The translations under genes and the position numbers were made by a program. A stretch of 19,195 bases of DNA from a bacterium. GTDB taxonomy: Bacteria > Zhuqueibacterota > Zhuqueibacteria > Zhuqueibacterales > Zhuqueibacteraceae. The stretch lies in contig JBIOXB010000113.1 of NCBI GenBank assembly GCA_044869275.1, positions 1-19,195 of the forward strand, read 5' to 3'. Numbering within the stretch: position 1 is the first letter of the stretch; each line of letters starts with the position of its first letter. The notes under the pieces are model-generated. The model made no database searches. It was not told the origin of the DNA and was given only the letters and a program-made list of their open reading frames with translations. Positions 3,180 through 19,195 of the stretch are shown here, piece after piece.

Positions 3180-3242
3180 ATGAATGAATTTACCCACGGC
3201 ACGTTGGAAGAAACCTCTTTAGGCTGTGCTTTTTTAGCAAAG

Positions 3243-3308
3243 AAATTCAAAATCCAAAGCACAAAGCACAAAACTACTCTTGGATTTTGTGCTTTGACAT
3301 TTGGGTTT
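3243..3308. repeat. Heptamer-periodic inverted repeat (REP-like hairpin)
   Basis: AAATTCA-AAATCCA-AAGCACA-AAGCACA (3243-3270), then TGGATTT-TGTGCTT-TGACATT-TGGGTTT (3281-3308). Perfect 12-bp stem between CAAAGCACAAAA (3262-3273) and TTTTGTGCTTTG (3285-3296). Confidence 0.8.
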
Positions 3309-3331
3309 CCGACTCGTTCGGGTTAGGTTTT

Positions 3332-7732: not shown

Positions 7733-7746
7733 AGGAGGCGAGCAAT

Positions 7747-8046
7747 ATGCCGCAGTCTTATAATATTGAAGAGACGTCGCCACTGGCACATCTTATTGCG
7801 GAAATTGACGCCTTATAGGCTAAAATTAATGCATTAAGACCACTTCAAGATGCGATATGGGCGACCATTCAAGAAAAATTGCGCATTGAGTGTACGTATG
7901 ATTCCAACGCCTTGGAGGGAAGCACGCTAACCAAAGGAGAAACTTATTTTTTTCTTCGGGAGGGCCTGACCGTTGAAGGCAAACCATTCAAGGATTTTAT
8001 GGATGCGCGCAATCATGCCGAGGCGATTGATTATTGGAAGCTTTAG
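7747..8046 (+). pseudogene. Fic/DOC family protein remnant (N-terminal part only, internal TAG at 7816-7818)
   Basis: RBS AAGGAGG (7732-7738) and ATG at 7747. Manual translation: MPQSYNIEETSPLAHLIAEIDAL*AKINALRPL...TYDSNALEGSTLTKGETYFFLREGLTVEGKPFKDFMDARNHAEAIDYWKL*. This has the SNALEGxTLT motif of class II Fic proteins. No HPFxDGNGR catalytic motif was seen downstream. Confidence 0.82.
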
Positions 8047-8265
8047 AATTGGCGGATGGGGGCAATTTAGGTCCATGCACAGAGCTTGTGGCGCGCAGTC
8101 TGCTAAACACGCAACAGATCATCTGGCAAGATCTCAATGCGAATTGAAACGTTGGTCGTTACAGAGTTCAAACGTCGAATAAAACCCCCAAATTTGCAGA
8201 CAACTACCTATCAGCCGGATCAAAGATTCTATTTTGCCAAATAACAAGGAAAGGATGAACCCAGC

Positions 8266-9345
8266 ATGAAGTACGATTTAAGAGGTCTCCGAAAAAGTGC
8301 TGCACTTTTTCCAATCATACCGGCCCTTTTGGCTTTGATGATCTCCGCCTGCACGCAGCAGCAAGCACAAGGTGGATTTCAAATGCCGCCCATGCCGGTT
8401 GAAACGGCACTGGTGGCGCAGACCACGGTCATCGATCCGTTTGAGGCCGTGGGCACGATCGAAGCGGAAGACGCGATTACGGTCGTCTCCGAAATGGATG
8501 CGCTGGTGATTAGCCTGCCGTTTCGCGAGGGCGAGGCGATTGCCAAGGGCGGATTGATCGCGCAATTGGATGATACGCAATTGCGCGCGGAGGAACTTCG
8601 GGCGCTGGCGCTTCTCGAACAAAGCAAAGTGACTTTCGATCGCATTAAGACCATCTCCGACGAGGGCCTGGGCACGGCGCAAAGCCTCGACGATGCAGCC
8701 GCGGCGCGAAAAGTGGCGGAAGCCGACGTTGCGGTGATTCGCGCGCGCTTGAAAAAGACGCGTATCGTGGCGCCGTTTGCCGGCATTGCCGGGGCGCGGC
8801 GTGTGAGCCCGGGAGCGTTCGTGCGCGCGGGTTCGCCGATCACCGACTTGGCGCAGATTCAGCAACTGCGCGTGACTTTTTCCGCGCCCGAACGATTCTA
8901 TGGGCAATTGCAGCGCGGCGCGGAGGTGAAAGTTTCCACCACGGCTTACCCGGACGAAGAGTTGATCGGCAAGGTACAAGTCATCGATCCGATCGTGGAT
9001 CTCGGCACGCGGCGCGTGAAAGTGATCGCGCGCCTCGACAATCAGGGCGGCAAATTTAGGCCGGGGATGTCCGCAAATGTCACCGTGGTTTTGGGCGAAC
9101 GCCCAAATGCTTTGACCATCCCCAGCGAAGCGGTTTTCGTCGAGGGCAGCCAAGCGCTGGTCTTCATCATTCAAGCCGACAGTACGGTAGCCAGAACCCC
9201 GGTGGAGCTGGGGACGCGCTTGCGCGAGAAAGTGGAAGTGCTCAACGGGCTTGCGGCCGGCACGATGGTGGTGCGCGCCGGCCATCAAAAACTTTTTCCC
9301 GGCGCGAAGGTGATGCCGATTTCGACCATGCCGCAACAAAATTAG
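8266..9345 (+). CDS. RND efflux periplasmic adaptor (membrane fusion protein), probable lipoprotein
   Basis: Signal peptide with lipobox-like ISAC. Motifs EAVGTIEA, RIVAPFAG, FRPGMSA, ALTIPSEAV and VEVLNGL...VVRAGHQKL. Confidence 0.93.
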   Translation: MKYDLRGLRKSAALFPIIPALLALMISACTQQQAQGGFQMPPMPVETALVAQTTVIDPFEAVGTIEAEDAITVVSEMDALVISLPFREGEAIAKGGLIAQLDDTQLRAEELRALALLEQSKVTFDRIKTISDEGLGTAQSLDDAAAARKVAEADVAVIRARLKKTRIVAPFAGIAGARRVSPGAFVRAGSPITDLAQIQQLRVTFSAPERFYGQLQRGAEVKVSTTAYPDEELIGKVQVIDPIVDLGTRRVKVIARLDNQGGKFRPGMSANVTVVLGERPNALTIPSEAVFVEGSQALVFIIQADSTVARTPVELGTRLREKVEVLNGLAAGTMVVRAGHQKLFPGAKVMPISTMPQQN

Positions 9346-9357
9346 CAATTTTTTGGG

Positions 9358-9423
9358 GAACCGCGAATGATCGCTAATCAGCGCGAATGCAGAATTCACG
9401 AGTATTCGCGTTCATTCGCGGTT
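9358..9423. repeat. Left palindromic repeat of the GxxExxY cassette
   Basis: AACCGCGAATGA (9359-9370) pairs perfectly with TCATTCGCGGTT (9412-9423). Inner CGCGAAT (9382-9388) pairs with ATTCGCG (9404-9410). Confidence 0.9.
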
Positions 9424-9436
9424 AAAGGGGGCAAAA

Positions 9437-9820
9437 ATGGCAGAACTATTAGAAAAAGAGTTGGTCTTCCGTATCATCGGATGCGCCATGGCCGTTCACA
9501 CTACCCTCAAGCACGGCCTACGTGAAAAGACATACGAAAACGCGCTTGCTATTGAATTGCAGCATCACAAAATTGAGTACAGCAAGCAAACAAGCTTTCC
9601 GGTTTATTATCGCAACGAGCTTGTGGATCAATTTATACCCGACCTGGTGGTAGAAAGACGTGTAATCGTCGATACCAAAACAGTTGAAACGATCATCGAT
9701 GACCATCGTGGCACGATGCTCAATTACCTCAAGATTACCGGATTGAAGGTCGGCGTTATCATCAATTACAAACACCGCAAGCTGGAATGGGAACGATTGG
9801 TTTTAGATGAAGCGCGATAA
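9437..9820 (+). CDS. GxxExxY protein (PD-(D/E)XK nuclease-like fold)
   Basis: 127 aa with IIGCAMAVHTTLKH-GLREKTY-ENAL (GxxExxY), FIPDLVVERRVIVDTK (PD...DxK) and MLNYLKITGLKVGVIINY. Confidence 0.92.
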   Translation: MAELLEKELVFRIIGCAMAVHTTLKHGLREKTYENALAIELQHHKIEYSKQTSFPVYYRNELVDQFIPDLVVERRVIVDTKTVETIIDDHRGTMLNYLKITGLKVGVIINYKHRKLEWERLVLDEAR

Positions 9821-9889
9821 ACCCGCTGTTCGAGTCGTTCAAGGGCTGCAAAGCACACGCCGTTATCGCAATTGAAGCGAATGGTCTTT

Positions 9890-9920
9890 ATTCGCGTAGA
9901 TTAGCGATCATTCGCGGTTC
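9890..9920. repeat. Right inverted repeat of the GxxExxY cassette
   Basis: ATTCGCGTAGATTAGCGATCATTCGCGGTTC. Positions 9899-9920 are the exact 22-nt reverse complement of 9358-9379. Confidence 0.9.
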
Positions 9921-9936
9921 AAAATGGAGACGAATA

Positions 9937-12900
9937 ATGAAACTGAGCGAAATCTCGATCCAACGCCCGGTGCTCGCCACGGTGATGAGTCTGGTGATCA
10001 TCATCTTCGGGGTAGTGGCATTCACGCAGCTGCCGGTGCGCGAATATCCCGATATTGATCCCCCCATCGTTTCCGTCACCACGTTTTATCGCGGCGCCAG
10101 CCCGAACGTGATCGAGACGGAGATCACCGATATTTTGGAGGAACAGCTTTCGACGATCGAGGGCGTGAAGACCATCACTTCCTCCAGCCAGGAACAAGGC
10201 TCGGTGATCACCATCACGTTCGAGCTGGATCGCGACGTGGATCAAGCCGCCAATGACGTGCGCGACCGCGTGGCGAGTGTGCGCGGTGTGTTGCCGCGCG
10301 AAGCGGATGACTCCATCATCCAAAAAATTGACGTGAATGCCCAGCCGATCATGTGGCTGGCGGTGATCAGCGACCGTCACAACAATCTCGAGTTGACGGA
10401 TGCTGCCGAACGCCTGCTCAAAGAGCGCCTGCTGCGCCTGCCCGGCGTAGGTTCGATTTTCATGGGCGGCGAGCGCCGCTACGCCATGCGGGTGTGGCTG
10501 GATTCGCAGCGCATGGCCGCGCGCGGCCTTACGCCGCAAGACGTGGAAAACGCCATTCGCTCTGAAAACGCGGAAATACCGGCAGGCCGGGTTGAAGGCG
10601 AAAGCCGCGAGTTTACCGTGCGCACGCGCGGCGATTTGTCCACCCCGGAGGAATTTGCCGCGATCATCGTCAAACAAGACGGCGATGAGGTGGTGCGCTT
10701 GGGCGACGTGGCCGACGTCGCTCTCGGCGCGCAAGATGAACGCACCGCGGTGCGGTGGAACGCCAAGCCCACGACCGGCCTCGGTGTTGTCAAGCAAACC
10801 CGCGCCAGCACGCTACAAGTGGCGGAAACCGTGATTGCGGCCCTGCCCGAGCTGGAAAAAATCCTGCCCGAAGGCATGCAAATCGACGTGGCCTACAACT
10901 CGGCGACCTTCATTCAGAACTCCATTAATGAAGTTGCAGAGACGCTGCTCATTGCGTTCGGCTTGGTGGTGTTGGTGATCATCGCATTTCTCAAAAGCTT
11001 CCGCGCCACGCTCATCCCCACCTTTGCGATTCCGATTTCCATCGTCGGCACCTTCGCGGTGTCGTACTTTCTTGGCTATACCATCAACATTCTCTCGCTG
11101 CTGGCGTTGGTGCTGGCCATCGGTTTGGTGGTGGATGACGCCATCGTCATGCTGGAAAATATTTATCGCCACATGGAGATGGGCAAAGCGCGCTGGCAGG
11201 CTGCGATCGACGGCGCGAAAGAGATCGGCTTCGCGGTGCTGGCAACCACGATCGCGCTGGTGGCGGTGTTCGTGCCGCTGGCTTTTCTCACCGGCAACAT
11301 CGGCCGGCTCTTCAATGAATTCGGCGTCTCCGTGGCGGTGGCGGTGCTCATCTCCGGTTTTGTCGCCCTGACGTTGACGCCGATGCTGTGCTCGCGCATG
11401 TTGAAACCACTGCATCACACCGGCACGAGCTGGGCTTCGCGCTCGTTCGATGCCTTCTTCGATTGGATGGAGCGCACCTACAACAAGATTGTGCGCGGCG
11501 CGCTGCGGCGCCGTGGTCTGGTTTTGGGCATCGCCGGTTTATTGATCGTGCTCAGCGTGGTGTTGTTCAATTTTCTTCCCAGCGAGCTGGTGCCAACCGA
11601 AGATCGCGGCGTGGGCTTTGGCATTGTCATCGCGCCCGAAGGCGCCACGCTCGAATACACCGATCGCTACATGCGCCAGGTCGAGCAAATCATGCTCAGC
11701 CGTCCCGAGACCGACGGTGTTTTCACCGCCACCGGCGTGGGCTTCGGCGGTCCGGGCCGCGTGACCAATGGCTTTATCTTTATGGGACTGAAGCCGGAGA
11801 GCGAGCGGAAAAAATCGCAGCAGGAAATCGTGCAGGAGCTTTTTCCGCAGCTTTTTTCGATTCCCGGCGTGCTCGCGTTTGTATTGAATCCGCCCAGTCT
11901 GGGCGCGGATTTCAATTTCACCCCGGTGGCTTACGTGTTGCAAGCGGATACCTATGAAGAATTGCAAAGCGCCGTCGGCACCATGATGGCGCAGGCCTCG
12001 CAGCTGGGTTATCTCATCAATTTGGATAGCGATCTGCGCTTGAACAAACCTCAGCTCGAGATTACCATCGATCGCGAGCGCGCCTCCGGACTCGGCGTTT
12101 CGGTGACCGACATCGGCAGCACCCTCGAAACATTTCTCGGCGGCCGCGTGGTCACCGACTTCAAGCGCGGCGCTAAACAATACGACGTCATCGTGCAGCT
12201 CAAGCCTGCGGATCGTGCCACGCCCAACACGATTGACGGCATTTATTTGCGCGGCACGAATGGGTTGGTGCAGCTCGCGAATGTTGTGAACGTAAAAGAA
12301 ACCGTGTCGCCCAAGGAGCTGAATCACTTCAATCGTGTGCGCTCGGCCACGATCACTGCCAGCATGGTGCCCGGCGTGAGTCTCGGCCAAGCGCTGAATG
12401 ATCTCGATCGCGTCGCGGACACCAGTTTGCCCGCAACCATCAAACGCGACTTGACCGGGCAATCGCGCGAGTTTCGCGAATCCAGCGGCGCATTGTATTT
12501 TCTCTTCGCGTTTGCAGTGGTGTTCATTTATTTGGTGCTGGCGGCGCAGTTCGAGAGCTTCATTCACCCGCTGACGATATTGCTGTCCGTGCCGCTGGCG
12601 GTTGCAGGCGCATTGGCCTCGCTTTTTGCTTTCGGACAAACCATGAACATCTACTCGCAAATCGGTTTGATCCTGTTGATCGGCCTGGTGACGAAGAACG
12701 CCATTCTGATCGTGGAATACGCCAACCAATTGCGCGCGCGTGGCCGGCAATTGTTTGACGCGGTTGCTGAAGCTTCGACCATCCGCTTGCGGCCGATTCT
12801 CATGACCTCATTTTCCACGGTCTTTGGCATATTGCCGATTGCCATCGGCCTGGGCGCGGGAGCAGAGGCCCGCCGGCCGCTGGGCATCGCGGTCGTGGGC

Positions 12901-13068
12901 GGCGTGCTGTTCTCGACGTTTTTGACGCTGGTGCTCGTGCCCGTCGTTTACACGCTGCTGGCGCGGTTTACCAAAGTGGAGGCGCATGTCGAAAGCGAAT
13001 CTTCCAACGGCAATGAGCCAGTGGCAGTGCATGCCAGAGAAGAGGGCGTGCGGGAAGCGGTGGCGTGA
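9937..13068 (+). CDS. RND efflux transporter permease subunit (AcrB/AcrD/AcrF family)
   Basis: 1043 aa. N-terminal SIQRPVLATV; proton-relay motifs GLVVDDAIVMLENI, GLVTKNAILIVE and RLRPILMT. RBS GGAGA at 9926-9930. Confidence 0.95.
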   Translation: MKLSEISIQRPVLATVMSLVIIIFGVVAFTQLPVREYPDIDPPIVSVTTFYRGASPNVIETEITDILEEQLSTIEGVKTITSSSQEQGSVITITFELDRDVDQAANDVRDRVASVRGVLPREADDSIIQKIDVNAQPIMWLAVISDRHNNLELTDAAERLLKERLLRLPGVGSIFMGGERRYAMRVWLDSQRMAARGLTPQDVENAIRSENAEIPAGRVEGESREFTVRTRGDLSTPEEFAAIIVKQDGDEVVRLGDVADVALGAQDERTAVRWNAKPTTGLGVVKQTRASTLQVAETVIAALPELEKILPEGMQIDVAYNSATFIQNSINEVAETLLIAFGLVVLVIIAFLKSFRATLIPTFAIPISIVGTFAVSYFLGYTINILSLLALVLAIGLVVDDAIVMLENIYRHMEMGKARWQAAIDGAKEIGFAVLATTIALVAVFVPLAFLTGNIGRLFNEFGVSVAVAVLISGFVALTLTPMLCSRMLKPLHHTGTSWASRSFDAFFDWMERTYNKIVRGALRRRGLVLGIAGLLIVLSVVLFNFLPSELVPTEDRGVGFGIVIAPEGATLEYTDRYMRQVEQIMLSRPETDGVFTATGVGFGGPGRVTNGFIFMGLKPESERKKSQQEIVQELFPQLFSIPGVLAFVLNPPSLGADFNFTPVAYVLQADTYEELQSAVGTMMAQASQLGYLINLDSDLRLNKPQLEITIDRERASGLGVSVTDIGSTLETFLGGRVVTDFKRGAKQYDVIVQLKPADRATPNTIDGIYLRGTNGLVQLANVVNVKETVSPKELNHFNRVRSATITASMVPGVSLGQALNDLDRVADTSLPATIKRDLTGQSREFRESSGALYFLFAFAVVFIYLVLAAQFESFIHPLTILLSVPLAVAGALASLFAFGQTMNIYSQIGLILLIGLVTKNAILIVEYANQLRARGRQLFDAVAEASTIRLRPILMTSFSTVFGILPIAIGLGAGAEARRPLGIAVVGGVLFSTFLTLVLVPVVYTLLARFTKVEAHVESESSNGNEPVAVHAREEGVREAVA

Positions 13069-13130: not shown

Positions 13131-16100
13131 ATGCACTGCCCCAACTGCCGCCACGAAAATCGCGCCAACGCCAAATTCTGCGAAGGATGTGGGATGGAGC
13201 AGGCTCCCGTCTGTCCGAGCTGTGGTCATGAGCTAAGACTGCAAGCCAGGTTCTGCGACGCGTGCGGCTCTCAGCTTGCACCAACGATGGCCTCTCCAAC
13301 CCCGGCAGATCTATCCTCGAAGTCGCCGCCTCCCAAGCGTGAAGCGCCGGAAGCTGAACGCCGCCACCTGACCGTGATGTTCTGTGATCTGGCCGGTTCA
13401 ACCGCGCTGTCCACGCAACTCGATCCGGAGGATCTGCGCGAGGTGGTGCGCCAATACCAAGCCGCTTGCGCCAAAGTCATCGCGCGCTATGACGGCCACA
13501 TCGCCCAATATCTTGGCGACGGGATTTTGGTCTATTTCGGTTACCCCGTAGCCCACGAGAACGACGCGCAACTCGCCGTGCGCGCCGGGCTGGGAATTGT
13601 GGAAGCAATGGAGGGGCTCAATCTTGGCCTGCAGCAGAAAATGGGTGTCAAGTTGGAAGTGCGTCTGGGCATTCACACGGGCCTCGTCGTTGTTGGAGAA
13701 ATGGGCGGGGGCAATCGGCATGAACAACTGGCTTTAGGAAAAACTCCGAATATCGCTGCGCGACTGGAAGGCCTCGCTCAATCCAACACCATCCTCATCA
13801 GCGCCGCAACTCATCGCCTCGTTGCCGGTTTTTTTGGCTGCGAGGATTTGGGTACCCATTCCTTGAAGGGCGTCGCCGAGCCCATGCAGATTTATCGGGT
13901 GCTCCATGAAAGCACCGCTAAAAGCCGGCTCGAGGTTGCTGCGCTTAAAGGCCTCACGCCTTTGGTGGGCCGCGAGCAGGAAGCCAATCTGCTGCTGCAG
14001 CAATGGCAACAAACGAAAGCGGGCGCTGGCAATGTGGTTCTACTCAGCGGTGAAGCGGGTATTGGCAAATCGCGGCTGGTGCAGGTCTTGAAAGAGCGCG
14101 TGGCCGAAGACCCGCAAGCGTGGTTGACGGAGTTTCGCTGCTCAGCTTATCATCAAAACAGCGCTTTTTATCCCGTCATTGACTTGCTGGAGAGAGTGGT
14201 TCTGGCCTTCGAGCCGCATGATTCCCCGCACGAGCGGCTGAGAAAGATCGAGGGCTTTTTGGTGCAGTATATGGCTTGCCGCTGCAGGAAAATACGCCGC
14301 TGTTCGCAGCCCTGCTCTCGGTTCCGCTGGGCGAAGGCTATGTGGCTTCGAATCTCTCCGCGGAGCGACAAAAGCACCAGATCATCTCGGCTTTAGTCCA
14401 CGTGTTGGAAGTACGCGCCTCGCGTCAGCCGGTCTTGTTGGTGATCGAAGATCTGCACTGGGCCGATCCCTCGACCATAGAGTTTATCAGACGTACCATC
14501 AACAAAGTGCCCGGCGCCCGCGTTTTGGCCGTGCTCACCTTCCGCCTGGAGTTTTCCCTGCCGTGGCAAAACCCGCCACACGTGATCTCGATCTCACTCG
14601 AGCATTTACCCCAGTCGCAAACGCGGGCAGTCGTGCATAAACTGGCGCAGGGCAAGAGTCTGCCCAATGAAGTGCTTGAGCAAATCGTCGCCAAGACCGA
14701 TGGCGTTCCACTATTTGTCGAGGAGCTGACCAAAATGGTGCTGGAATCCGGTCTGTTGATCGAGCATCAGCATCATTTCGAGCTGGCAGGTGCGCTGCCG
14801 CCGCTCGCCATTCCAACCACCTTGCACGATTCTCTCATGGCCAGGCTCGATCGCATGGCAACGGTCAAAGACGTGGTCCAGCTTGGCGCCACGATCGGGC
14901 GAGAGTTCACCTACGAGCTTCTGCACCTGGTGGCGCAGCTCGATCATGCCAAGCTGCAAAATGAGCTGGCGCGGTTGGTTGTTGCCGGGTTGTTGTTTGA
15001 AGAAGGCACACCCCCCAAATCGAAATACACATTCAAACACGCCCTCATTCGTGAGACCGCATACGAAGCTCTGCTCAAGAGCACACGGCAGATTTATCAT
15101 CTGCGGATCGCGCAGGTATTGGCGGAGCGCTTTCCGCAGCTGGCCGAATCCAAGCCTGAGCTCATCGCCTACCATTATACTGAGGCCAGGGTCTCCGAGT
15201 CAGCCGTGCACTTCTGGTATCGTGCCGCTCAAAATGCCGGCCGGCGTTCACTCCCGGAGGACGCCATCCTCTATCTCAACCAGGGCCTCGCCTTGATTCG
15301 CGCGATGCCGGAAAGTCCGGATAAAACGCGCCAGGAGCTTGAGTTTCTGATCCCACTTGGGTCCGCGCTGGTGGTCACCAAGGGCTATGCTGCGTCTGAA
15401 GTCGAACAGACTTATGCTTGCGCTCGGGAGCGTGCCATACATTCGGGCGAACGTTCTCATTTGTACTCGGCCGTGCTGGGGCTCTCTGCTTATTATCTCA
15501 TTAGAGGAGAGTTTCAGTCGGCGCAAGAGCTCGCCATGCAGGGACTGAGGCTGGCAACCGATATGCAGGATCCGGCTCTGCTCGTGGAATCGCACTACGT
15601 GCTCGGCACAGCTCTTTTTCATTTGGGTCATCTCAAGGCGGCGAGATCGAACTTGGAACAAGGTATCGCCCTTTATGAAAGTTCTCAGCACGCCGCCATG
15701 GTTTCGCGCTTCGGGCACGATGCCGGCATCCTATGTCTGTGCTATTTGGCGCGCATTCTTTGGTTTCAAGGTTATCCCGATCAAGCGTGGAGGAGAAGCG
15801 CGGAAGCAGTGGCTTTGGCGAGAGCGCTGGGGCACCCCTTCAGCCTGGCGCACGCGCTTACCTTTGCCGCCTTGGTCGGGCAGTTGCGGCTGGAAATACA
15901 ATCGACGCGAGAGCTCGCGGAAGAAGCGATCGCGCTCTGCACGGCGCATGGTTTTGCGTTCTGCCTGGCGATGGCTACCGTGCTGCGGGGTTGGGCGCTG
16001 ACCGAATTGGATCAAAAACAGGCCGGGATCGCGCAAATCGAGGAAGGAATAAAAGCCTGGCAGGCGACGGGAGCAGAGTTGTTCCGCCCGCATCTGCTGG

Positions 16101-16486
16101 CGCTGCTGGCGGAATCGTATGGCAAGGCCGGCCGCACAGCAGAAGGGCTGCAGGCCTTGGCAGAGGCCACGACGGCTGCGCAAAAAAGCGGCAAGCGATT
16201 TTACGCCGCGGAGTTGAATCGCCTCAAAGGAATGTTGTTGATGAGAATAGGCAAGCCCGCCGAAGAAGTGGAGCAATGTTTTTATCAAGCGGTCGAGATT
16301 GCACAAAATCAGCAGGCTAAATCTTTGGAGCTACGGGCGGCCGTAGGTCTATTTTCGTATCAAGAGCATAGTCAGCATGCGAAGCAGATTCTGCATGACG
16401 CGTACCATTGGTTCGAGGAAGGGTTCGATACGCTGGATTTACAGCTGGCCCGGACGTTGCTCGCAAGACAGGAGAATGAAGTGTGA
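13131..16486 (+). pseudogene. Double zinc ribbon + class III adenylate/guanylate cyclase + STAND-type ATPase + TPR-like protein, frameshifted at about 14271
   Basis: ORF 13131-14396 has four CxxC pairs, the cyclase motifs TVMFCDLAGST, YLGDG, GIHTG and NIAARL, and Walker A GEAGIGKS. ORF 14276-16486 has Walker B LVIEDLHWAD, TDGVPLFVEE, YTFKHALI and helical repeats. Removing AT at 14271-14272 joins them in frame (...LVQYGLPLQE..., 1117 aa). Confidence 0.85.
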
Positions 16487-18848: not shown

Positions 18849-18907
18849 ATAGCACTACAACGTTAAACTGGCCGGACCGTTTATCATTGTCATTCAGAAG
18901 GGATCAC

Positions 18908-19075
18908 ACTGTGTGAAAACTTGGGAATGCAGCACCCTGAGCTTGTCGAAGGAAGCTTGTCGAAGGGAGCTTGTCGAAGGGAGCTTGTCGAAGGGAGCTT
19001 GTCGAAGGGTGCTAAGTTCAAGAATCCGGCTTCGACAAGCTCAGCCGGCGTTGAAAGCAAGGGTTTTCACACAGT
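18908..19075. mobile_element. MITE-like element with 13-bp perfect terminal inverted repeats
   Basis: ACTGTGTGAAAAC (18908-18920) pairs with GTTTTCACACAGT (19063-19075), extending imperfectly outward. No transposase gene and no clear target-site duplication. Confidence 0.5.
18939..19044. repeat. 5x14-bp tandem array (GAGCTTGTCGAAGG) with one inverted copy, REP-like
   Basis: Units start at 18939, 18953 (first base A), 18967, 18981 and 18995, ending at 19008. The inverted copy CTTCGACAAGCTCAG (19030-19044) is the reverse complement of 18937-18951. Confidence 0.93.
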
Positions 19076-19195
19076 CTGAATCCTGTGCAGTAACAAGCAC
19101 ACTCGTCTATGGCCCAACGGTGTGACAAGAATCAACCAATCCCGAAGCTTCGGGACTCCTGAATGACATCTCTGGATGGAAAGGCTGGCTTAGGG

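Follow-up and report, generated by a model that had tools for sequence, protein, structure and literature searches.

A GxxExxY nuclease-like gene between hairpin arms in an efflux operon: a candidate transposase-free mobile cassette

How does a small nuclease-like gene, enclosed by inverted repeats and accompanied by no transposase gene, come to lie between two genes of an efflux operon, and do the gene and its repeats move as one unit? This question is raised by a 19,195-nt stretch of DNA (referred to here as the window) from a bacterium of the family Zhuqueibacteraceae. An intact gene for an RND efflux membrane-fusion protein (MFP; 8266..9345, + strand; TIGR01730, 235 bits; ORF list) is followed there by an intact RND permease gene (9937..13068, + strand; NF033617, 1140 bits), the latter preceded by an RBS-like GGAG at 9926-9929. 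The original prediction placed a unit with 31-bp inverted repeats between these genes, leaving both intact, and this description holds to the base: 9358-9388 agrees with the reverse complement of 9890-9920 at 29 of 31 positions, the MFP stop lies at 9345, and the permease gene begins at 9937. Among the inverted repeats of the window, the outer-arm pair ranks highest (36 nt, 89%). The left outer arm (9358..9388, +), which forms the left end of the cassette, comprises three CGCNAAT boxes with a 10-bp period, and its start is the point at which homology between cassettes at unrelated sites begins. After a 5-nt gap it is followed by its hairpin partner, the left inner arm (9394..9423, −; inverted repeat I3, 80%); the left-arm hairpin has a DNA fold of −20.7 kcal/mol (z −5.87). 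A short leader with a purine-rich RBS-like run ahead of the ATG (9424..9436, +; read from the sequence) leads into the GxxExxY gene (9437..9820, +), which encodes 127 aa with a predicted PD-(D/E)XK nuclease fold (TIGR04256, PF13366 and a structure model). The right outer arm (9890..9920, −) closes the cassette, and between it and the gene we infer, from the junction sequences of relatives, a decayed right inner arm with the approximate limits 9845..9882 (+). This arm is barely legible in the window copy and clear in G009, G015, L100 and L102, and a complete right hairpin is present in L103-L105. The second left arm, the decayed forward right arm and the genome-wide arm family described below are additional to the prediction, whose view of the repeats as simple 31-bp ends stands in part: the repeats are real, but they are not private ends, and the mobile form is a hairpin-gene-hairpin unit with four arms.

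The window cassette had an inverted-flank score of 53, as compared with a maximum of 21 in shuffled sequences, and a score of at least 40 was reached by only 9 of 1500 control genes. The low GC content noticed earlier for the enclosed gene was borne out (44.8% for 9437-9820, as compared with 59.5% and 59.1% in the neighbouring genes), and no direct repeat was found around the window cassette, in agreement with the reported absence of a target-site duplication. A promoter scan of the cassette gave one candidate against 1.3 in shuffled sequences, and neither a promoter nor a terminator was found above chance; the GxxExxY gene is therefore likely to be expressed from the operon transcript.

Several other features of the window are recorded here in their own right. 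Upstream of the MFP gene, 7740-8080 is an AT-richer stretch with stops and frameshifts, which resembles a broken Fic-family gene. A hairpin of CAAAGCACAAA / TTTGTGCTTTG units (3242-3309) lies just upstream of a large helicase-like gene, and an adenylate-cyclase/ATPase-like gene is split across overlapping frames (13131-14396 and 14276-16486), probably by a frameshift. At 18899-19084, a CTTCGACAAGCTCAG arm is the pairing partner of five 14-bp GAGCTTGTCGAAGG units in tandem; both lie inside a second 22-bp inverted repeat and constitute another nested palindrome family.

The product of 9437-9820 belongs to the GxxExxY family, as it matched TIGR04256 with 129 bits (cut-off 35) and PF13366 with 118 bits (cut-off 22) in a profile search and carries the motif residues G27-E30-Y33. 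The PD...DxK residues that had been read from the translation are present as P68-D69 and D79-T80-K81, and the active-site residues E30, D69, D79 and K81 are intact in the window copy. The structure model (pLDDT 93.6) showed a restriction-endonuclease-like fold with the E, PD and (D/E)xK residues in place, by which the protein is a predicted PD-(D/E)XK nuclease with putative cleavage activity. Among 174 proteins compared, D69 was conserved in 171, D/E79 in 172 and K81 in 170, and the catalytic set E30, D69, D/E79 and K81 was kept in 71 of 72 proteins of the CGCNAAT class. In the window copy, T replaces the Q of a QxxxY-like motif (Q in 130 of the 174); QxxxY is a mark of RecB/Cas4-type nucleases. 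The best fold matches included Cas4 SSO0001 (TM 0.60), lambda exonuclease (0.56) and Hjc (0.45), which are nucleases acting on DNA ends or branched DNA, as well as restriction-fold proteins; the top Z-scores were tied and middling (8.0, 7.9, 7.8 and 7.8) and did not indicate a substrate, and since the matches tied with restriction enzymes, no function was transferred from them. The protein thus shares the predicted core fold and the E...D...(D/E)xK active site with Cas4, lambda exonuclease and Hjc. Unlike Cas4, which has a four-cysteine Fe-S cluster (PMC3466216, PMC4176176), it has a single cysteine in its 127 aa and hence no such cluster. A sequence search of solved structures gave one chance match (E 0.33), and a protein atlas search gave one match at 0.75.

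The family was present in 110 of 121 genomes sampled from the phylum, with about 1-13 matches per genome. In the host genome (G000), the 16 TIGR04256 matches correspond to 13 loci, two surplus matches being second domains, and many relatives are tandem double domains, which hints at a dimer. The names of homologues suggest candidate division KSB1 as the probable host. No cassette carrier was found in 50,697 phage records or in a search for viral carriers, and 6 of 72,556 plasmid records matched, all with less than 40% identity. The pertinent section of PMC3424549 records PDDEXK_3/GxxExxY as a family of unknown function with many horizontal transfers, and the literature passage naming GxxExxY mentions, within that passage, only a Cas4-like domain. 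We also observed GxxExxY forms of ~250-280 aa (G000 C235:16171-16990, C203 and C94; L327-L363), mostly tandem double domains, in which the catalytic motif is altered in one half and each of which has its own longer-period arm family.

Genomes and metagenomes supplied 130 distinct GxxExxY loci. Scorable flanks were available at 122 of them, which we compared with 1500 long ORFs of the host genome as controls. At a threshold of 28, inverted flanks were found at 84 of the 122 GxxExxY loci, as compared with 18 of the 1500 control genes, and at 81 of 97 loci in another set of family-wide scope. Forty GxxExxY loci also scored in the direct orientation, as expected when a hairpin stands on each side. 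In the host genome, all 13 loci showed arms on the available flank(s), falling by eye into about nine arm families. The presence of CGCNAAT arms followed protein identity to the query: they occurred at 11 of 11 loci above 80% identity, at 14 of 18, 42 of 52 and 6 of 12 in the successive lower classes, and at 1 of 37 at 30-45%. On a tree of 125 rows, the arm-class label changed 28 times, as compared with 50.7 in shuffles (0 of 200 were as low), a result that by itself shows clustering rather than co-evolution, because kin share labels. In a label-free comparison, arms were more like those of the nearest protein at a different site of another genome (similarity 0.239) than those of other cassettes within their own genome (0.017), the former being higher in 63 of 94 cases. 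Both expectations of the original prediction, namely that homologs are enriched for flanking inverted repeats and that these repeats co-vary with protein phylogeny, agree with these results, and the comparisons indicate that arm sequence tracks the protein rather than the host.

The CGCNAAT class comprises 74 loci in 34 gene contexts, including dprA-topA, phosphatase-kinase and BREX genes, and no functional context common to the cassettes was found. Three cassettes, L103, L104 and L105, are 89-92% identical at three unrelated junctions; the homology spans the left outer arm tip to the right outer arm tip and ends there, with a complete hairpin on either side of the gene. A consistent target duplication was not found among 52 loci, none having one of at least 5 bp, and 3-bp target matches numbered 19 against 10.4 expected, at sites that are old and have no clean empty allele. 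Close copies within one genome were likewise not found, the highest within-genome protein identity being 34-76% in 15 genomes, so that bursts of the IS kind are absent. No excision joint skipping the cassette was detected in 4 DNA runs, which proves little, because these comprised contigs only and one run is possibly the source of the window. From the flank enrichment, the arms following the protein and the ~90%-identical cassettes at unrelated junctions, we conclude at the level of sequence comparison that the unit moves, with neither a transposase gene nor a consistent target duplication. The proposal that the protein mobilises its repeats gains from transposase-free movement and arm covariation, but no support was obtained for a recent insertion of 563 bp to which a clean empty allele would correspond. 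A group of nine metagenome loci (the L138 group) was observed to carry a CGCNAAT cassette between a helicase gene and pglZ in a BREX-like defence operon, where the end of the upstream gene and the left arm overlap.

In the host genome, 93 CGCNAAT-type arms occurred in 55 clusters, with none in two shuffles, and an arm logo drawn from 55 cassette loci showed three CGCNAAT boxes with a 10-base period and free spacers. A strict hairpin rule scored hairpins at 60 of 2522 co-directional junctions genome-wide. A count of solo hairpins had been suggested, and we considered it as a gauge of the protein's activity. It showed that 37 of the 53 gene-less hairpins of the host genome lie inside, and 16 of the 53 outside, a MITE-like shell of 126-144 bp with GGAT...ATCC ends and a CGCNAAT hairpin at its centre (genome-wide in G000; examples are G000 C129:37883-38019, G009 L224:1465-1605 and L371). 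The shell is an element separate from the cassette: among 21 complete shells, 8 are bordered by a perfect 3-base duplication (TWA-type), a true empty site in both G015 and G003 corresponds to one of the G009 copies, and the same shell wraps three other hairpin types in relatives, or nothing at all (79 bp, in the unpublished genome G014). No transposase adjoining the shell ends was found in 30 loci and 15 regions. Because most solo hairpins lie in this separate shell, their number says little about the GxxExxY protein. Gene-less hairpins thus have two sources, shell-borne copies and deletion relics (G008; G006 at L210). At L210, a second cassette site, we found a pseudogene plus a deletion relic; this site appeared to be empty in G006, and this candidate was rejected, as both outer arm stubs remain. 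The flanks of L213 gave no match in 4 genomes.

The window junction was compared in 19 genomes of the family, 16 of which had the permease start; G010, G011 and G018 (82, 94 and 59% complete) gave no match to the junction, the MFP gene was absent from the G005 contig, the G015 contig breaks just left of the cassette, and the G001 and G014 alleles come from unpublished genomes. A search of orthologous operons for empty sites had been suggested. None of the 16 was clean, the junction being occupied by full, deleted or rival arm elements. A complete cassette was present in 4 of the 16 (G000; G009, with D69V; G012; and G015, with a premature stop) and also on four metagenome contigs. G008 kept the arms plus 23 codons after an internal deletion, G001 had an arm remnant and a CGGAT hairpin, a gene-less GACAGAAAAAT hairpin stood in 7 of 16, a decayed GACAGAAAAAT hairpin in G006, and a CACGAAG hairpin in 2 of 16; a strict automatic hairpin rule scores 6 of the 16 alleles, the others having been assigned by reading and alignment, and kin among them are not independent. 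All four repeat types border GxxExxY genes elsewhere in the family. The deletion in G008, D69V in G009 and the premature stop in G015 form a decay series, and patchy presence at one conserved site together with decayed copies is a feature of free-standing homing endonuclease genes. At synonymous sites, the cassette gene has diverged from that of G000 to a degree similar to its neighbours, and dN/dS was 0.07-0.11. These values indicate that the cassette is an old resident of the junction, with long residence under purifying selection.

The eight cassette proteins at this junction form one clade (100/96), whereas for the genes that flank the cassette in the nine carriers such a clade is rejected (AU p 1e-39 for the permease and 7e-126 for MFP). 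Between G012 and L107, mismatches amounted to 109 of 896 positions in a cassette-centred patch and to 2 of 845 outside it, the patch limits having been set after viewing the data and L107 being a 2.5-kb metagenome contig that is possibly chimeric. This patch reaches about 110 bases into the MFP gene and 140 into the permease gene, and both letters are found in other lineages at 19 of its 28 flank differences. G009 and G015 have a permease dS of 0.14 as compared with a cassette dS of 0.61, and MFP is likewise not shared. Between G009, with the cassette, and G006, with the decayed rival hairpin, the switch is limited to the last ~8 MFP codons through the permease start. At another junction, the same two genes enclose unrelated cassettes (33% identity): L313 in G016 is a single domain with CGCAAAG arms, L329 in G007 is a double domain with CCAACGGA arms, and the L313 cassette is nested inside a leftover arm of the L329 type. 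Overall, near-site flanks showed no clustering by allele (0.350 within vs 0.345 between), and over 52 loci cassettes were not generally nested in older palindromes (own 12.0 vs cross 11.9). At five other loci, G009 and G015 are 2-21% different, and the permeases of G009 and G006 are closer than their other loci; as the genomes are mosaic elsewhere too, ordinary recombination could yield the same picture. Taken together, these alignments indicate that alleles have been exchanged at the window junction.

We propose that the cassette is an old selfish element whose nuclease recognises the arms and provokes breaks at hairpin junctions, with host recombination copying the cassette, a reading to which we give about equal chances of being right and wrong. 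The predicted nuclease would bind the three-box arms as double-stranded DNA, as the 10-bp period, the free spacers and the lack of a G.U bias suggest, and may cut at or near hairpins of the arm type. Such cuts would drive allele exchange, in which host recombination copies the cassette over a relative's repeat element at the same junction, and rare repair at other junctions or hairpins would seed new sites. The decay of cassettes into hairpins without a gene, through point mutations and internal deletions, is seen in the alleles themselves. A weakness of this model is that a nuclease which cuts its own arms would have to spare the donor cassette.

The sharp ends at the arm tips, the four-arm layout, the unrelated target junctions and the lack of a consistent duplication would also be produced by hairpin-guided excision and integration of the REP/RAYT or IS200/IS605 kind, in which single-stranded hairpins are cut at the arm tips and joined without homology; the hairpins do fold strongly as single-stranded DNA, and 16 of the 53 gene-less ones lie outside the MITE-like shell. 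We consider this unlikely, since PD-(D/E)XK is a hydrolytic fold that lacks the joining chemistry of HUH/tyrosine enzymes, no genome of the 15 held two close copies (34-76% at the highest), the 4 DNA runs, as contigs, yielded no excision joint, and the sites carry site-specific clades. Slightly more doubtful is the explanation that the arms are operators or stabilising hairpins of a host-beneficial gene, which recombination or the enzymes of other elements moved passively. Strong purifying selection and long residence, the occurrence of the family in 110 of the 121 phylum genomes, the common background mosaicism, and a MITE-like shell that spreads hairpins in the host genome with 3-bp duplications agree with such carriage. 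It accords poorly with up to a dozen divergent copies per genome, lying in unrelated operons and each with its own arm family, with the frequent pseudogenes and deletions, and with homology that stops exactly at the arm tips in cassettes that have no common functional context.

Processing of the long stem at the RNA level was part of the original prediction. The cassette would in that case resemble the intervening sequences (IVS) of 23S rRNA: the outer arms would pair, RNase III or the protein would excise the unit, and it would spread through RNA or recombination. The operon transcript can indeed fold with the outer arms paired (z −3.99), cassettes are co-oriented with both neighbours in 53 of 71 cases, and the pertinent part of PMC4990558 describes a 28-bp terminal stem around an ORF in the Coxiella IVS. 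This reading nevertheless appears improbable to us, and it is left unsupported by the sense strand, where G.U-compatible mismatches between the outer arms were not in excess (74 vs 62, p 0.35; 124 vs 117, p 0.70). Conservation lies in boxes with free spacers, and boxes one helical turn apart would fit a DNA protein-binding array better than an RNA stem; no Rfam match was found, and the unit contains no reverse transcriptase. In favour of RNA excision, a contig of RNA run X11, from a relative of ~95% identity, joins 9731 to 9909 and so skips 177 nt (9732-9908). This joint, with 36 nt on its short side, was the only one inside the cassette among 4 further runs; it removes half of the gene and half of the right arm rather than the cassette, resembles the DNA deletion of G008, and is most simply a DNA deletion. 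That an ordinary GxxExxY gene merely landed between two copies of a common dispersed repeat, as the 55 clusters of the arm family in the genome might suggest, has next to no likelihood: the association of gene and arm is almost universal and, in all the phyla concerned, specific to the subfamily, hairpins stand at only 60 of 2522 co-directional junctions, and the flank enrichment (84/122 vs 18/1500) and the arm-protein tree test refute such a chance composite.

Among known systems, free-standing homing endonuclease genes (T4 seg/mob and the PD-(D/E)XK enzyme I-Ssp6803I), as described in the relevant sections of PMC2988022, PMC3424549 and PMC10448857, are the closest in working to the proposed selfish cassette. 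Shared features are a small nuclease gene between conserved genes, site-specific clades, and a cycle of invasion and decay. Allele exchange that carries flanking host sequence may be a further one: one clear patch and two discordant pairs were found, but no near-site signal overall, and background mosaicism is common. In contrast to the homing genes of these sections, the cassette bears terminal arms of its own, which co-vary with its protein; it also leaves hairpins that lack the gene and occupies many unrelated junctions of bacterial chromosomes, and its cleavage is a prediction. The REPtron/REPIN-RAYT system, in the portions of bioRxiv 10.1101/2021.07.10.451892 and PMC3733652 that concern it, likewise has a palindrome-flanked nuclease gene with palindromes that also occur gene-less, enzyme-specific and extragenic repeat families, long residence and read-through expression. 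It differs in that RAYT is an HUH/tyrosine enzyme, a class to which the PD-(D/E)XK protein of the cassette does not belong, that RAYTs are single-copy without self-movement, whereas cassettes have ~1-13 matches per genome and have moved between junctions and phyla, and that REP palindromes are ~14-bp, as compared with arms of 3 x 10-bp boxes. The Coxiella S23p 23S rRNA IVS (same part of PMC4990558) resembles the cassette in having an ORF that is enclosed, within the transcript of its host, by a terminal inverted repeat of ~30 bp; the cassette differs in lying between protein genes instead of in an rRNA gene, in its nuclease fold and in box-like arms without an RNA-pairing bias. With IS elements and MITEs it shares terminal inverted repeats that mark the ends around one gene, and gene-less derivatives formed by internal deletion, but it lacks a DDE or HUH transposase, a consistent target duplication and multi-copy bursts within a genome. 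On the tested features, the cassette falls outside REPtrons, IS and IVS. We found no description of the gene-plus-arm unit in the literature searched.

What the window locus newly contributes is evidence on allele replacement. Its junction provides a natural series, in which cassettes are intact or carry a point mutation, a premature stop or a deletion, and to which rival hairpins and a patch of recombination belong as well; this series separates a homing-like route from a transposition-like route. The pairing of arm and protein gives each subfamily a predicted substrate, and a direct test of the function therefore needs only a 127-residue protein and an oligo of 30 bp. If cognate hairpins are cut, a large class of intergenic palindromes would be explained, and very small sequence-specific nucleases would be at hand. 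More tentatively, and at somewhat less than even likelihood, GxxExxY cassettes may represent an undescribed class of transposase-free mobile DNA, in which a minimal Cas4/RecB-like nuclease recognises its own three-box arms and uses other hairpins at operon junctions as landing pads, with rival cassette families displacing each other at a given junction. If this is true, their relics would be the origin of a large part of the palindromic repeats that are still unexplained in many uncultured phyla, and each subfamily would be a natural sequence-specific hairpin nuclease of 127 residues with a known cognate arm.
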